Assembly: GCA_963555815.3 (NCBI GenBank)
Contig: CAUVWX020000001.1
Span: forward strand, 768,001-832,000
Source of the DNA: a bacterium
GTDB lineage: Bacteria > UBA8248 > JACPRG01 > G963555815
Direction of reading: 5' to 3'
Length of the DNA: 64,000 nt
Made by a program: the position numbers and the translations under genes
Shown: piece after piece, positions 4,207-48,535 of the stretch
How positions within the stretch are numbered: position 1 is the stretch's first letter
Layout: each line of letters starts with the position of its first letter
The notes under the pieces: model-generated
The model's database searches: none
What the model was told of the DNA's origin: nothing
What the model saw: only the letters and a program-made list of their open reading frames with translations

Positions 4207-5655
<1,449 letters not shown>

Positions 5656-5673
5656 CCCGGGAAAGCGAAGAAG

Positions 5674-6096
5674 ATGACGACCGAGGGACCACAAAAAGTA
5701 CGCCTGGAGGTTGTAACCCCAGAGCGCCTTCTTCTCTCCGAGGAGGTGGACATGGTGAGCGCCCCCGGGGCGCTGGGGGAGTTTGGCGTCCTCCCCTTTC
5801 ACACCCCTCTTCTGACGACCCTGGACATCGGTGAGGTTGTGTATCGAAAGGGAGAGAAGACACACCACCTGGCCCTCAGTTGGGGCTACGCCGAGGTTGG
5901 GCCCGAGAAGGTGACCATCCTGGCGGAGGTGGCTGAGAAGGCGGAGGAGATTGACTTGAAAAGGGCTGAGGTGGCTGAGGGGCGTGCTCTGAAGCGTCTC
6001 AGAGAGCAGCAAGGCCCAGTCGATATCGAAAGGGCTCGGGTGGCCCTGGAAAGGGCGCGCGTGCGCCTTCGGGTTGCGAGAAAGGACTCTAAATGA
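5674..6096 (+). CDS. atpC: ATP synthase F1 subunit epsilon
   Basis: LEVVTPER, GEFGVLPFHTP, C-terminal helical hairpin. Confidence 0.96.
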   Translation: MTTEGPQKVRLEVVTPERLLLSEEVDMVSAPGALGEFGVLPFHTPLLTTLDIGEVVYRKGEKTHHLALSWGYAEVGPEKVTILAEVAEKAEEIDLKRAEVAEGRALKRLREQQGPVDIERARVALERARVRLRVARKDSK

Positions 6097-6193
6097 TTCA
6101 GGCGGCCCATATTCAGCCAAGCGTCGGAGGAGAAAGATCGGGCCGCATTTTTCACGGGAGGAGGGGGGACGGCCCCCTTGGAAGAGCTGGGGA

Positions 6194-7048
6194 ATGAAGG
6201 TCCGAGTCGGGCTCAGCCAGATTAGCCCCACCTTAGGGGACCTGGATCGCAATATTGAGATCTTCCGAAAGGCCGTGGCGCAGGCGCAGGAGAAGGGGCT
6301 AGAGCTCCTCATCTTTCCCGAGCTTGGCCTGACGGGCTATTTCCTCAAGGACATGGTCCCGGCGGTGGCCCAGTTACGGAGCTCCCGTCTCTTGAAGGAG
6401 ATGAAGGCCATCAGTCAAAAACTCTCTCTGGTGGTGGGGCTGGTTGAAGAGTCTCGGGATCATTGTTTCTATAATTCGGCCTTTTATCTTGAAGGAGGGG
6501 AGATCCTTCACATCCACCGAAAGCTCTATCTCCCCACATACGGGATGTTCGACGAGCAACGCTACCTTGCCCGGGGTAAAAAGGTCCGGGCCTTTGAGAC
6601 CCGGTTCGGGCGGGCCTGCATGCTCATTTGCGAGGACGCTTGGCATCCATCTACCGTCTACGTCGCCTCCCAGGACGGGGCGGAACTCCTCTTCATCCCG
6701 TCCTCCAGCCCGGGGCGGGGAGTGGAAGGCGGGCACGATCTCGCCATCACCCGGACCTGGGAAGGCATGAACCGCATCTATGCGCTGCTCTTCTCCCAGT
6801 TCTGCTTCTTCGTCAACCGCGTCGGATATGAGGACGGCGTGAGTTTTTGGGGGGGGTCCGAGGTCGTTGACCCTAAGGGGGAGGTCCAGGCCAAGGGGCC
6901 TTACTTCGATGAGGCCTTCGTCGAGGCCGAGATCGATCTTCAGGAAGTCCGCCGAGCGCGCATCAGCTCTCCTACCCTGAGGGACGAGGACCTTGGCCTG
7001 ACCATCCGGGAGCTTCAGCGAATCAGAAAGGCCCAAGAGGCCACCTGA
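6194..7048 (+). CDS. carbon-nitrogen hydrolase (nitrilase superfamily; resembles a stand-alone NAD synthetase glutaminase domain)
   Basis: E-K-C triad motifs FPELG, HRKLYLPTYGMFDEQRY, ICEDAWH; start set at ATG 6194. Confidence 0.85.
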   Translation: MKVRVGLSQISPTLGDLDRNIEIFRKAVAQAQEKGLELLIFPELGLTGYFLKDMVPAVAQLRSSRLLKEMKAISQKLSLVVGLVEESRDHCFYNSAFYLEGGEILHIHRKLYLPTYGMFDEQRYLARGKKVRAFETRFGRACMLICEDAWHPSTVYVASQDGAELLFIPSSSPGRGVEGGHDLAITRTWEGMNRIYALLFSQFCFFVNRVGYEDGVSFWGGSEVVDPKGEVQAKGPYFDEAFVEAEIDLQEVRRARISSPTLRDEDLGLTIRELQRIRKAQEAT

Positions 7049-7104
7049 GCTTCCCCCCTTGTCGGGACTGTCCGCAAACAGGCGCTCAGTCCTCTGTACA
7101 TTAG

Positions 7105-8415
<1,311 letters not shown>

Positions 8416-44546: not shown

Positions 44547-45275
44547 TCAAGACCTCCGCTTTCCCCTTAGCCGAGGCGCGCTTTTCTCTCCGGGCAGGTT
44601 TTTTAAGGGATAGACGCATTCTTTCATAAGAGGGCATTCCCAACAGTGGGGTTTTCTCGCCTGGCAGATATATTTGCCGAACTTCCACATGTGGATGTGG
44701 GTGGAGTAGGCCTTTCCCGGCGGAAGGAGGGCGGCCATCTCAAAGTGGGCTTTTGCGGCCGAGCAATTTTCGGGGATGAGGCCGAGCCGCAGGCAAACCC
44801 GGTGGACGTGCGTGTCCACGGGAAACGCGTCCTTCTCGAAGGTGAACATCAGGACGACGCTCAGAGTTTTTGGGCCGATCCCTTTGAGGTGCCCAATAAC
44901 CTTCTGAGCCCCCTTCAGATCTAGATCTTTCAGGAAGTCGGCGGAAAGCTCCCCGTGGGTCTTTTTTAGCCAGCGCAAAAGATCCCGAATGCGGCGGCTT
45001 TTTTGCCCCGCCAGGCCCCCCGGTCGGATGGCTTTTTCGATGGCCCGGGGGGAGGCGCGCATAACGTCTTCCCAGCTGGAAAAACGCTCCCGTAGGCGCC
45101 CGTAGGCCAGGTCGCGGTTCGCGTCCGTCGTATTTTGGGAGAGCATGGTGAGGATGAGGGAGCTCAGGGGGTCTCGCCCGTCCGGCCGCCACCTGACCGG
45201 CCTAAAGAGCGAGGACAGGACAGAGATGACCCGCCGGGTCTTTCTCTTCAGTTCAGGACGGGTAGGGGTCGCCAT
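44547..45275 (-). CDS. nth: endonuclease III-like HhH-GPD DNA glycosylase
   Basis: LSQNTTD, GIGPKT, FPVDTHV, 4Fe-4S motif C-x6-C-x2-C-x5-C. Confidence 0.9.
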   Translation of the reverse strand: MATPTRPELKRKTRRVISVLSSLFRPVRWRPDGRDPLSSLILTMLSQNTTDANRDLAYGRLRERFSSWEDVMRASPRAIEKAIRPGGLAGQKSRRIRDLLRWLKKTHGELSADFLKDLDLKGAQKVIGHLKGIGPKTLSVVLMFTFEKDAFPVDTHVHRVCLRLGLIPENCSAAKAHFEMAALLPPGKAYSTHIHMWKFGKYICQARKPHCWECPLMKECVYPLKNLPGEKSAPRLRGKRRS

Positions 45276-45336
45276 GGCGATTATATAGTTAACAAACCCA
45301 CTATTAGTTTAAAGCATTGAATGCATTTATAATTAC

Positions 45337-45486
45337 TCATTTCTTCTTACGCCCTTTCCCGCCCTTTTTCGGCTTGTTTGGTGGTGGCTTCGCCTTCAAG
45401 AGGTCGCTGACCACCTCCTCAAAGGGCAAGCCCTCAAAGGAAAGAGGCCCCTTATCCCCCCTTTTGGATCTTTTCGTCTGAGCCAT
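45337..45486 (-). CDS. 49-aa basic passenger protein (not in the ORF track)
   Basis: MAQTKRSKRGDKGPLSFEGLPFEEVVSDLLKAKPPPNKPKKGGKGRKKK; GGGGA SD-like sequence upstream. Confidence 0.6.
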   Translation of the reverse strand: MAQTKRSKRGDKGPLSFEGLPFEEVVSDLLKAKPPPNKPKKGGKGRKKK

Positions 45487-45581
45487 CACACATCCCCCAA
45501 AAAAGCTATCAGTTTTTTCTTAACACAGGTTGATTAGACTACTAGTATTAGACTAGCCTTACAGTTCTGAAAGGGGGAACC

Positions 45582-46031
45582 ATGATTAGACTTTGGATAG
45601 GTGATGTGAAAGTTGAGTGCGACACCCCTGCGGAGGCCTCCGAAATTGTCCGGCTGGTGGGGTCTCAGAGGCAGAGGCGCTCTTCTCAGAGGTTTCCATC
45701 CGAACTTCTTCAGAATTTAGCAGCCGGGCTTTCATCTGCCCCTCCACATGGGCTTGAGGTTCCGTTTCTCCAGACAATCACAGCGTCTGGGAAAGGGGTC
45801 TCTTCGAAAGACCTCGCCTCAACGCTGGGAGTAAAAAAAACGACCGCTTTGGGCCCCATTTCCAGAGCCACAGAAAAGACGTTGAGGAGCATAGGGGAAG
45901 AGCCCCGGGATGTCTATGGGATTGACAGAGAAGGACAAGTCCCTTTATGGGTTCCTGGCCCTAGAGCAAAAGAGGCTTTGAGAAAGATGGAAGGATCTGA
46001 AGGAGATCAAATGCACAGACCCCAAAAGTAA
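45582..46031 (+). CDS. hypothetical IS passenger protein, possible helix-turn-helix
   Basis: 149-aa ORF with SD AAGGGGG; GVSSKDLASTLGV..TALGP is HTH-like. Confidence 0.6.
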   Translation: MIRLWIGDVKVECDTPAEASEIVRLVGSQRQRRSSQRFPSELLQNLAAGLSSAPPHGLEVPFLQTITASGKGVSSKDLASTLGVKKTTALGPISRATEKTLRSIGEEPRDVYGIDREGQVPLWVPGPRAKEALRKMEGSEGDQMHRPQK

Positions 46032-46102
46032 AACAGCCCCCGCCAGCTGATACTGGCGAGGGCTATTATACAGGAGAACCCCGGAGGGCCTCTCCCTTAC
46101 AC
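46030..46102 (-). ncRNA. putative small RNA 1 (promoter-hairpin-terminator unit)
   Basis: TTGACA (46137-46132)-N17-TAAAGT (46114-46109); terminator AGCCCTCGCCAG/CTGGCGGGGGCT-GTTTT pairs fully (one U-G) only on the minus strand. Confidence 0.55.
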
Positions 46103-46216
46103 ATATTCACTTTAGGCCCTCTCGGTCCTCCTGTCAAGGAGGCAATCGTGAGGGCCTTTCTGTTTATGTGGCCCGGACCCATCCGTGCACCAACCCTTTC
46201 CTAAAAACGGGTCGGT

Positions 46217-46305
46217 GCGCCAGTGGTGGAATCGGTAGACACGGCGGGTCTGGGACCCGCCATTTAGCGAGGATATGTTGGTTCGAATCCGGCCTAGCGC
46301 TCCCA
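46217..46305 (+). tRNA. non-canonical class II-like tRNA with anticodon TGG
   Basis: Acceptor GCGCCAG/CTAGCGC, D arm GTG-GAATCGGTAGA-CAC, anticodon arm GCGGG-TCTGGGA-CCCGC, 16-nt variable region, T arm GTTGG-TTCGAAT-CCGGC, then TCCCA. Confidence 0.7.
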
Positions 46306-46361
46306 CTCTATTTTTTCACTGGTCTTTTAGATAGTCAAATACATCAAGAGAGGTGGATGTT

Positions 46362-47279
46362 ATGGAAACCGACATCACCAAATTGGCCGAGTATTTCTCG
46401 GATGAGAAAAAGGCCATTGAGCTAATCGAAAGGCTCCGCTGGCCTGGGGGCCCTGTCTGCCCCCATTGTGAGTCGAAAAAAGCCTATCGGCTTCGAGTAA
46501 AGAGCTTAAGGCGGAAACTGTGGAAATGTGCCAAGTGCCGAAAACAGTTTTCGGTGATGGTGGGAACCATCTTTGAGGATTCCCATATACCCCTTAAAAA
46601 GTGGCTGGTGGCAATCTATCTTATGTGTTCCTCGAAGAAGGGCATTAGTGCTAATCAGCTTCATCGGAGCCTCAAGCTAACTTACAAATCTACCTGGTTC
46701 ATGTGCCATCGAATCAGATATGCCATGAGTCAGCCACTACTAGCAGACAAACTCAAAGGAATCATAGAGGCCGATGAGACCTACATTGGCGGAAAAGCGA
46801 GGGGGACGGTCGGACGAGGGGCAGACAAAAAGGTTCCGGTCCTGGCCCTAATTGAACGTGGCGGTAGGGCAAGGTCTTTTCTATTGCCTAATGTGGGCGG
46901 GGGGACAATCCGTTCCTTAATCAAAGGTCATGTAGAAATCGAGGCGGAGATTATGACAGACCAGTTTCCCTCCTACAAAGGGCTAGGCAAGCATTTTGCG
47001 GGCCACCATGTTGTTGAACACGGAAAGCAATATGTCCGAGGCATTGTGCACACCAACTTCGCTGAGAGCTATTTTAGCCTCCTCAAGCGGGGCATTATGG
47101 GCACCTTTCACCATGTCAGCGAAAAGCATCTGCCTTTCTACCTGGCCGAGTTTGACTTTAGGTGGAATGAGCGAGAACTTTTAGATGGAGACAGAACCGC
47201 AGAGGCCATCAAATGTATCGAGGGAAAAAGGTTGACCTATAAACAGCCAAGGAAAAGACAAAACAGGAAATCTTGGTAG
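46362..47279 (+). CDS. IS1595-family (ISXO2-like) DDE transposase
   Basis: Zn ribbon CPHC/CAKC, GTIFEDSHIPL, EADETYIGG, MTD, HTNFAESYFSLLKRG, YLAEFDFRWN. Confidence 0.95.
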   Translation: METDITKLAEYFSDEKKAIELIERLRWPGGPVCPHCESKKAYRLRVKSLRRKLWKCAKCRKQFSVMVGTIFEDSHIPLKKWLVAIYLMCSSKKGISANQLHRSLKLTYKSTWFMCHRIRYAMSQPLLADKLKGIIEADETYIGGKARGTVGRGADKKVPVLALIERGGRARSFLLPNVGGGTIRSLIKGHVEIEAEIMTDQFPSYKGLGKHFAGHHVVEHGKQYVRGIVHTNFAESYFSLLKRGIMGTFHHVSEKHLPFYLAEFDFRWNERELLDGDRTAEAIKCIEGKRLTYKQPRKRQNRKSW

Positions 47280-47314
47280 TGGGTCGTTTTGAGAGGTTCT
47301 AAGGACCAGGTGGG

Positions 47315-47350
47315 GCTTGCGAAATGTCAATTAATTGACATTTCGCAAGC
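47315..47350. repeat. perfect 36-bp palindrome
   Basis: GCTTGCGAAATGTCAATT|AATTGACATTTCGCAAGC. Confidence 0.95.
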
Positions 47351-47359
47351 TGGATGGGG

Positions 47360-47610
47360 TTATTTGAGGGACAGAAGGTGTTTTTTGGCGCAGTTTAAGT
47401 CAATTTAGAGATAGTTGATCATCTGTTTAATATGACCAATCTCAATTTCCGGATTTTCACTATTTCGTGGTCCCATTGGGAAACTCCGATATATTTTTCC
47501 ACCATAGCTTATCCAAATTCTATGCTCCTTTACCTGTCAGGTGTGTTCTGGCGCACATTCCTTTAGCATTTTTTGATTTTTCTTATACGAGCCGTGCCCC
47601 TGGTAGTCAC
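47360..47610 (-). pseudogene. decayed HicA-like toxin gene
   Basis: Reconstruction MTTRGTARIRKIKK/MLKECAPEHT*QVKEHRIWISYGGKIYRSFPMGPRNSENPEIEIGHIKQMINYL*IDLNCAKKHLLSLK; frameshift in the A-run 47569-47574, stops at 47537-47539 and 47405-47407; starts 3 nt after the stop of the upstream gene. Confidence 0.55.
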
Positions 47611-47613
47611 GGC

Positions 47614-48090
47614 TCAAGCAGCTAATGCTTTCTCTAGGTCTAAGATGTTGTTTTTTGCCGCCAGCTTTCCGACCCTTCTAATTTCAGGATAAGCAGATAA
47701 TTCAGCCTTCCGTCTAATCATTCCTTCGACCTGAATATCGCCGCTTCTAACCCTCTCGACAGCCTTCCACCATTTCTTGTCTGCATCCTTGGAGGTTTCC
47801 CCAACAAACCTGTGGACCTCTCTTTTAAAAGCGGAAAAATCTGCTGAACCCGCTGAAATATCAAACAAAACGGCTTTGAACGTTTGGAGGATTTGAAGAT
47901 AAGCCTCTCCCTCGTTCTTACCACTACCAGCGATGTCTCCTGGCTGAACGCCATACATCCAAACGTCTTCTTTTCCTTCCTGCACGGCAAGAACTCGCCC
48001 GCGAATATATACATCAACTAAAAACCCATTTCCTTCCACTTTTTCTCTAAAAGTCAAGAATAGTGGCAAATGGCCTCTGGCTGCAGCCAT
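47614..48090 (-). CDS. hypothetical protein, possible HicB-like antitoxin
   Basis: SD AGGAGG; beta-beta-beta-alpha pattern VWMYGVQPGDIAGSGKNEGEAY resembling HicB N-domains; coupled to the HicA-like remnant. Confidence 0.55.
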   Translation of the reverse strand: MAAARGHLPLFLTFREKVEGNGFLVDVYIRGRVLAVQEGKEDVWMYGVQPGDIAGSGKNEGEAYLQILQTFKAVLFDISAGSADFSAFKREVHRFVGETSKDADKKWWKAVERVRSGDIQVEGMIRRKAELSAYPEIRRVGKLAAKNNILDLEKALAA

Positions 48091-48223
48091 ACGCTACCTC
48101 CTTTTGGGTATTCTCGAATTTCCCAGAATAGCAATGAGTATATCTCTACCAACTATGGCTGTCAATGGTGCTTTTGTGGAGGGAATTTCATGGGGGCATG
48201 GCGGATTTCCTCCAAGTGGGGTC

Positions 48224-48322
48224 TTGACAAACCAACCCCTTTTCCGTAAATTCCCCTACGGTGAAGGAAATCTCTTAGTCTTTTGTGGCCGGAAACCGCT
48301 GGCGGGCGGTTCCGGCCTTTTT
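48224..48322 (+). ncRNA. putative small RNA 2 with its own promoter and intrinsic terminator
   Basis: TTGACA (48224-48229)-N17-TAAATT (48247-48252); ~60 nt later GGCCGGAAACCGC-loop-GCGGTTCCGGCC-TTTTT. Confidence 0.55.
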
Positions 48323-48535
48323 GCTATTAGGGCCGGATCCTCTGCTTCCTTCTACAACTCCTCGTTCACCAAATAAAATATAGCCTAGAATGGTGCGCCC
48401 GTCAATGGTTGTCCTTTTGGGTTTGTGAAAGGGATAATCGCCGTCGCCATAGGCGAAAATGTCACAAAAGTAAGGGTTTAGGCCCATATTGTGTGTTTCT
48501 CCACAGGGTTTTCCACAAGATGTGGAAATAACCCC

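Follow-up and report, generated by a model that had tools for sequence, protein, structure and literature searches.

A leucine-type tRNA with a UGG anticodon recurs beside insertion sequence transposases whose genes carry CCA codons at fixed sites

The window analysed here is a 64,000-nucleotide stretch of a bacterial genome (contig CAUVWX020000001.1 of assembly GCA_963555815.3, positions 768,001 to 832,000). It contains a 3,167-bp insertion sequence (IS) of the IS1595 family at 45276-48442; coordinates are those of the window unless another contig or locus is named. Within the IS, a class II tRNA gene with a leucine-type body and a UGG anticodon, TGG in DNA letters (46217..46303, plus strand), accompanies the transposase gene (46353..47279, plus strand). 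We found that tRNAs with this same anticodon are tied to IS1595 and IS1-like transposases and have a conserved fold, and that CCA codons sit at fixed sites of the transposase in such carriers. An initial annotation had treated the tRNA-like gene as one part of an RNA-based maintenance or defence module. On the evidence, its partner is more likely the transposase gene than the parts of such a module.

The 25-bp inverted ends of the element (left, 45276..45300, plus strand, GGCGATTATATAGTTAACAAACCCA; right, 48418..48442, minus strand, reverse complement GGCGATTATCCCTTTCACAAACCCA) are identical at 20 of 25 positions, and both begin with GG, as IS1595 family members do. An 8-bp target duplication, GTCGCCAT, flanks them at 45268..45275 and 48443..48450. 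We located the empty site in the same-genus genome G001, where both flanks are joined with an 8-bp overlap and the 8-mer occurs once; the element is therefore a true insertion. The left duplication includes the start codon of a flanking endonuclease III-like (HhH-GPD) glycosylase gene, which the insertion hit while leaving the gene's frame intact. Hexamers resembling -10 boxes face outward at both ends (TATAAT and GATAAT; 45276-45290 and 48428-48442), and the left one, 4 nt 5' of the glycosylase ATG, might sustain expression as a leaderless mRNA. Upstream of the same gene, at 48500-48530, lie two 9-mers that we take to be DnaA-box-like, and these are also present in G001 and the same-family genome G003.

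The transposase frame is open and encodes a Zn ribbon and a DDE domain (PF12762, E 2e-38; PF12760, E 6e-16; NF033547, 215 bits against a cut-off of 75). It occupies 927 of 3,167 bp (29%), less than one third as initially annotated, and the earlier description of a complete IS1595 element with inverted ends and an 8-bp duplication is likewise borne out. The element is single-copy in the host genome, where three other IS1595 transposases are 37-39% identical to its own. Two of the host's other IS1595 elements (L021:5312-7923 and L023:5050-8021) and L065, a locus that carries the tRNA, have in common a passenger resembling a DNA methyltransferase, a label given by eye. Promoter-like sites number 11, compared with 2.7 +/- 1.7 in shuffles, and terminator-like sites are not above chance (6, compared with 4.5 +/- 2.4 in shuffles). 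One of the promoter-like sites (45520..45548, plus strand, 9/12) could drive a 149-aa open reading frame (ORF149), the tRNA and the transposase.

What kind of tRNA does the element carry? ARAGORN labels it Pro(TGG), and it alone within the element passes its Rfam cut-off (40.2 bits, cut-off 29); matches to the His leader, sroE and sR30 fall below theirs. Its body has a long variable arm, a D loop like that of host tRNA-Leu genes (A15, G18G19, A20a) and U48, a leucine-type body that the initial annotation overlooked. The gene also has C33, G1-C72 and U73, the last of these being A73 in two sister sequencing runs, X7 and X11. Across 11 aligned family members, 97.5% of cells are paired and 14 of 22 pairs show two-sided changes; none of 500 shuffles was as high. 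All 11 members have G1-C72 and a 7/5 acceptor branch. The 8/4 or 9/3 branch of allo-type tRNAs is absent, as is the G72 that, with G35, G36 and G37, marks proline identity, and the anticodon alone fits proline. A family model at E<=1e-12 gave seven matches in the host genome, against five host tRNA-Leu genes plus two IS tRNAs, and the matches of the genome-wide search were mostly host tRNA-Leu genes. The host also encodes an ordinary tRNA-Pro(TGG).

In the available parts of PMC9976931, bacterial leucine identity comprises A73, A20a, the tertiary corner and the long arm but no anticodon base, and proline identity includes G72. Since leucine identity elements are present in the body and the anticodon is not read by leucyl-tRNA synthetase (LeuRS), the tRNA is, judging from its sequence, likely charged with leucine by LeuRS. 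A weak promoter-like site (46310..46338, minus strand, 9/12) points antisense into the tRNA 3' end. Locus L039, whose tRNA lies at 2086 (minus strand), has immediately upstream of it another tRNA-like fragment, in which a T loop is present but a clear anticodon arm is not.

The tRNA recurs in the company of IS1595 transposases. Scanning metagenome contigs with a sequence pattern that imposed C33 gave 29 matches, 12 of which fold as class II tRNA(TGG) and represent about eight distinct elements. An IS1595 transposase lies on the same contig in 9 of these 12, compared with 0 of the 17 other matches; the three tRNA contigs without one are each shorter than 1.8 kb, and two are near-copies of carriers. 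In the nine metagenome carriers, the transposase gene is convergent with the tRNA in six, downstream on the same strand in one and upstream in two. A role of the tRNA as a cis leader was rejected because of these arrangements.

Since the pattern imposed C33, we also assembled unbiased sets picked by transposase alone. The UGG form was found in none of 19 genome loci picked in this way. In the best 80 of 562 viral-contig loci, a Leu-bodied tRNA adjoins the transposase with TGG in five cases, AGG in one and GGA in one, a count that leaves out the ordinary tRNAs of phage clusters. L078, from the same-class genome G027 (transposase identity 53-56%), is a sixth independent TGG carrier. All six have U33, and C33 was rejected as a family hallmark. 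Element ends could be identified in L078, L083 and L102, where they enclose the tRNA, whereas a search for ends failed in L092, L135 and L147. Pattern scans gave one match in viral contigs, which is not a tRNA, and one in 51 genomes of the host's phylum, the window's own genome, with the U33 carrier L078 missed by the pattern. Around G051, they gave none in five genomes and two matches that do not look like tRNAs in 401 genomes. Locus L015, one of the 19 genome loci, carries, inside IS1595 ends (4482-8265), an 8/4 allo-type tRNA(GUC) with C33 (5641-5724), which suggests that allo-tRNAs may be IS cargo in general.

The host genome also has a 1,968-bp IS1-like element (C1:980285-982252; L020:4286-6253) with an 8-bp duplication, and this element carries a second Leu-bodied tRNA(TGG), T2. 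The order of ORF, hairpin, tRNA and transposase is that of the window element, and the tRNA is intact, with A73 and a CCA end. There is also an antisense promoter-like site between the T2 tRNA and its transposase. All three CCA codons of the T2 transposase fall within one loop, a circular count because the loop was defined from T2. Cognate codons also cluster in one loop in L169 (ATA, p 0.001) and L165 (GTA, p 0.05; anticodon read by hand); among 3,776 null pairs, two have p<=0.012. Varied tRNAs, none of them with TGG, stand 130-400 nt 5' of the transposase in the set of 80 viral IS1-like loci.

Other odd tRNAs of varied kinds stand upstream of the IS1-like transposase in L165, L169, L172, L181, L204 and L227. 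There are three side by side in L204, and the one in L227 has a G3-U70 body with a CAC anticodon. TTA-anticodon tRNAs, which would read the ochre stop, lie just 5' of the transposase in L182:2652-2739, L206:2781-2866 and L196:2621-2692, and also in L207, L208 and L210; those of L182 and L206 have a Leu-type body. The transposases next to such tRNAs end in TGA or TAG. Readthrough of in-frame stops was rejected as a function, because none of 74 IS1-like transposases, UUA-anticodon carriers included, has such a stop.

Does the anticodon match the transposase gene beside it? We compared 15 IS1595 carriers with 95 non-carriers, leaving out four duplicates and three carriers with other anticodons. 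CCA makes up 39 of 129 proline codons in carriers and 107 of 945 in non-carriers, with a mean third-position GC content (GC3) of 0.67 in both. It is the most enriched codon in carriers, and other A-ending four-box codons differ far less or not at all. Three sites were chosen by eye from the pattern-found set: N, before the first helix; M, four columns in the linker before the DDE domain; and C, the motif KRLxYxxP. In the six independent carriers, CCA accounts for 11 of 13 proline codons at these sites and 7 of 40 elsewhere, compared with 8 of 52 and 99 of 893 in non-carriers. At least one site has CCA in 6 of 6 independent carriers but in 6 of 92 full-length non-carriers. The window transposase has two CCA among its ten proline codons, at site M (aa 128, 46734..46736, plus strand) and site C (aa 299, 47247..47249, plus strand), and CCA is the host's rarest proline codon (10% of proline codons in 1,240 long host ORFs). 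Moreover, the AGG carrier, L091, has two CCT among 16 proline codons, both at M and C, with the caveat that CCT is in any case frequent at site C (20 of 26 proline codons). In carriers, then, CCA is placed at fixed sites of the transposase.

These observations bear on whether the tRNA does anything at all. A captured tRNA-Leu could have drifted in its anticodon and have no function, as the scarcity of the UGG form among relatives (those 19 genome and 80 viral loci) and the degenerate state of the window copy would allow. However, the same anticodon on very different bodies, together with compensated stems and matched codons, would be hard to reach by drift, and we consider a neutral passenger quite improbable. 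Some coupling between the tRNA and the transposase gene is, in our judgement, probable.

What form might this coupling take? Our preferred reading, which we hold tentatively and with less than even confidence, is that the recurring cargo of the element is a Leu-bodied tRNA(UGG), likely leucylated, that misreads CCA at linker sites and damps the element's own transposase. ORF149, the tRNA and the transposase would be expressed together, and the leucylated tRNA would compete with host tRNA-Pro for CCA. Leucine in place of proline at the linker sites would make the transposase less active in proportion to element dose, and the damping would act in trans on all copies of the element. We prefer damping because no alignment column pairs a carrier CCA with a leucine conserved in non-carriers and because one T2 CCA encodes a proline kept in 72 of 73 relatives. 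A broader version, possible although we lean against it, is that IS1595 and IS1-like elements share a design in which the tRNA body would be charged regardless of anticodon and the cognate codon stands at fixed transposase sites (UGG-CCA, AGG-CCT, UAU-ATA). Such a swappable private code would control transposition and leak missense or ochre readthrough into the host proteome.

Several observations weigh against damping by a matched tRNA. The window tRNA has U73 in place of the leucine discriminator A73, which is present in 10 of 11 aligned family members. Carriers cluster on a FastTree tree, with seven changes, and are thus partly kin; in five independent sister pairs, two to three agree and none disagrees, an underpowered and non-significant result (p 0.25-0.5). 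Four of the six non-carriers with CCA at a site stand beside carriers on the tree, and L118 and L140, complete elements with CCA at a site, yielded no tRNA even with filters off. Site C in non-carriers favours T- or A-ending codons, mostly T (CCT, ACT, ATT, GTT), even at high GC3, and a DNA-level constraint may therefore contribute. Other anticodons do not always conform either: the GGA carrier, L095, has no TCC in its transposase, four of six other tRNA-codon pairs in IS1-like elements (L172, L181, L204, L227) show no clustering of cognate codons, and three UUA-anticodon carriers have no in-frame TAA. Finally, the most conserved proline columns of the Zn ribbon have no CCA in carriers, and L037, L054 and L147 have CCA at the position of S181 in the window protein, in a strand, where 0 of 95 non-carriers have proline.

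The S181 codons would be expected if the private code were activating, that is, if the transposase needed leucine at CCA sites and worked only when the element's own tRNA was expressed. In addition, 9 of 95 non-carriers and the carrier L065 have a true leucine codon at site C. However, the three S181 cases resemble one lineage, L054 and L147 being sisters, and site M is proline in 16 of 16 listed rows of this part of the tree and leucine in none, the rows being hand-chosen. The 74 IS1-like transposases free of in-frame stops also speak against an activating code, which we regard as distinctly unlikely.

IS transposases are reported to bind in cis cotranslationally, and the tRNA might instead act through timing. 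It would alter ribosome speed at CCA codons on domain borders and so tune the folding or cis-binding of the nascent transposase. The sites suit this proposal by their positions, one at the start of the transposase, one in the linker that follows its DNA-binding part and one at its end, and so do the one-loop clusters of T2, L169 and L165. Additionally, C33 in all 11 pattern-found tRNAs may lower decoding, since odd bases at position 33 restrain mistranslating tRNAs according to the available parts of PMC11415595. That base was imposed by the search, however, and the independent carriers have U33; we rate timing no higher than an activating code.

The remaining cargo includes a divergent ORF pair, as initially annotated. 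Its minus-strand gene (45337..45489) encodes a tiny basic protein of 49-50 aa that has no Pfam or NCBIfam match; look-alikes lie beside other IS1595 transposases, and a protein search found the protein itself alone. A strict motif for it was dropped after matching 3 of 16 carrier loci and missing the window's own. ORF149 (45582..46031, plus strand) has a weak helix-turn-helix match (E 0.002) and a homologue (E 7.5e-4) that precedes the tRNA in carrier L147. Carrier tRNAs usually follow an ORF of 150-185 aa or stand opposite a tiny basic protein. A same-strand ORF of 150-230 aa precedes the tRNA in 9 of 19 carriers, T2 being a tenth, and a divergent tiny basic protein is present in 5 of 19; the window has both. 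In the end of ORF149 (46000-46031), a GGAG ribosome-binding-like motif and an ATG begin a six-codon frame, MHRPQK, and similar GGAG(G) motifs end the pre-tRNA ORFs of L037, L044, L050, L054 and L065.

Two further units could encode small RNAs (sRNAs). Unit 1 (46025..46137, minus strand; promoter 46137-46109, 10/12; hairpin 46067-46032) could give an RNA of about 78 nt; its promoter and terminator were both listed by the scans, and its fold has a z of -6.4. Unit 2 (48224..48326, plus strand; promoter 48224-48252, 10/12) could give about 65 nt, with a fold z of -2.1, and its hairpin was not listed by the terminator scan. Both had been described at the outset as promoter-terminator units. A 36-bp perfect palindrome (18+18; 47315..47350), also described at the outset, lies between convergent genes.

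The last cargo genes form a HicBA-like pair without a Pfam or NCBIfam match, behind a strong promoter-like site (48137..48165, minus strand, 11/12). The HicA-like toxin gene (47360..47610, minus strand) is a pseudogene with one frameshift and two stops. Its partner is a 158-aa ORF (47614..48090, minus strand), HicB-like by position. The loop His of HicA is catalytic; the KGxH-motif His of homologues is absent from the window gene, and no listed difference in run X7 supplies it. For an intact homologue from G030, the top Foldseek match is E. coli HicA (6hpb; probability 0.98, TM 0.75, E 0.17). For the toxin, the initial HicAB-like label is supported by the fold of this homologue, but it missed that the toxin gene is broken. 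The partner aligns with the N-domain of B. pseudomallei HicB at Z 5.5 (rmsd 4.6, 80 aligned), tied with unrelated folds, and searches found no viral relative, no PDB sequence match and no Foldseek match for it. The pair is intact in G030, G023, G003 (twice) and an IS1-like locus, and the partner stands alone in L082. One of the G003 pairs (C7; L027:2430-3130) lies in the same intergenic region and orientation as the window pair, at a different point and with no transposase. This suggests that the region is possibly an insertion hot spot.

Do these parts form one system with the tRNA? That had been the initial proposal, a coordinated RNA-based maintenance or defence module of tRNA, two sRNAs, palindrome and toxin-antitoxin pair. 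All the parts are present, promoter-like sites exceed chance, and unit 1 folds at a z of -6.4. In a comparison set of 234 fetched loci (1.63 Mb), however, the parts do not co-occur: the sRNA units and palindrome have no counterpart except one 37-nt match of the unit 2 promoter part (L072), and the HicB-like gene is present in six loci, none a tRNA(UGG) carrier. Neither sRNA unit paired convincingly with any of seven candidate targets (14 tests; best 1 of 100 shuffles). In sister runs X7 and X13, three adjacent bases of the palindrome differ, leaving it imperfect there. A module of this kind is largely refuted and, in our view, highly improbable. The suspicion that the cargo is not all random was right as regards the tRNA, which keeps its fold and is found again in both IS1595 and IS1-like elements. 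We take the HicBA-like pair, the two sRNA units and the palindrome to be probable passengers that can be exchanged.

We aligned contigs from four public sequencing runs to the region and re-aligned two of them over its middle part; this evidence consists of single contigs at depth 3-8. Run X2 differs from the window by one base and may derive from the source sample. In run X7, a single contig spans the entire stretch, inserted at the identical site, and differs from the window by 47 letters and nine gap bases. Its HicA-like frame is open in a codon-wise reading by hand, the frameshift being absent and both stop positions holding sense codons. Besides A73, its tRNA has three G-C pairs where the window tRNA has G-U, and its acceptor stem has a second mismatch of its own. 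Run X11 shares the tRNA alleles of X7 but lacks 759 bp (window 46665-47423: transposase end, palindrome and toxin end). No contig of the four runs has a joint spanning the whole element. The insertion, at the same site in X7 and X11, which are about 1% apart, appears to predate the sister strains and to be decaying. U73, the acceptor mismatch, the broken HicA-like gene, the single copy and the shared site in these diverged strains indicate that the circuit of this copy is likely decaying, and the perfect palindrome may be a recent templated correction.

The joint decay of tRNA and HicA-like gene in this lineage would also fit a different function, in which the tRNA is a mistranslating toxin directed at the host or phages, for addiction or abortive defence, and the CCA pattern reflects shared ancestry. 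Convergent transposase genes or promoter-like sites could give rise to antisense RNA over the tRNA, and the comparison of sister pairs falls short of significance. But a toxin fails to account for carriers in several parts of the tree sharing CCA at the same sites, or for the CCT codons that the AGG carrier has at M and C. Moreover, no dedicated antitoxin recurs among the 234 loci. We consider a toxin unlikely.

Known means by which insertion sequences restrain their own activity include frameshifting, antisense RNA and weak promoters. If damping by a matched tRNA is true, an element's own mistranslating tRNA would be a further mode of IS self-control. It would also say where odd tRNAs, allo-tRNAs among them, belong and what they do, and small transposons would be a source of missense and ochre suppressors.

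How does the element compare with known systems? Siguier and colleagues reportedly described, in 2009, IS1595-family transporter ISs that carry passenger genes. The window element resembles these in its single Zn-ribbon and DDE transposase, GG-starting ends, 8-bp duplication and passenger ORFs, the duplication and Zn ribbon being family traits in the available parts of PMC8101967. It differs by adding a recurring chimeric tRNA matched to transposase codons; a literature search covering few subscription journals found no paper on IS-borne tRNAs of this kind. The HicBA-like pair has the two-gene arrangement of HicAB type II toxin-antitoxin systems and, in the G030 homologue, a predicted HicA-like fold, but it lacks their family matches and its toxin gene is broken.

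Two groups of unusual tRNAs come closest. Allo-tRNAs, as described in the available parts of PMC5389517 (Mukai et al., 2017) and PMC7609411 (Krahn et al., 2020), are class II tRNAs in which body and anticodon disagree, as in the window tRNA, and are found near toxin-antitoxin genes and once overlapping a transposon-related ORF. The window tRNA shares this context, lying near toxin-antitoxin-like and transposon genes. Unlike allo-tRNAs, which have Ser or Ala identity, it has a 7/5 branch, Leu identity and a Pro anticodon, and those parts of the two papers name no IS family and no codon match. Streptomyces tRNA-ProX, in the available parts of PMC10404621, offers natural bacterial mistranslating tRNAs of dual identity with an unusual base 33, but with a Pro body (C1:G72), other anticodons and its own prolyl-tRNA synthetase gene (ProRSx). 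The window tRNA is of the reverse design, with G1-C72, a place in transposons and no need of a synthetase gene; besides the transposase, no synthetase-sized ORF lies inside the element. The window element, which is likely decaying, belongs to a group of insertion sequences with a codon-matched chimeric tRNA that appears not to have been described before.

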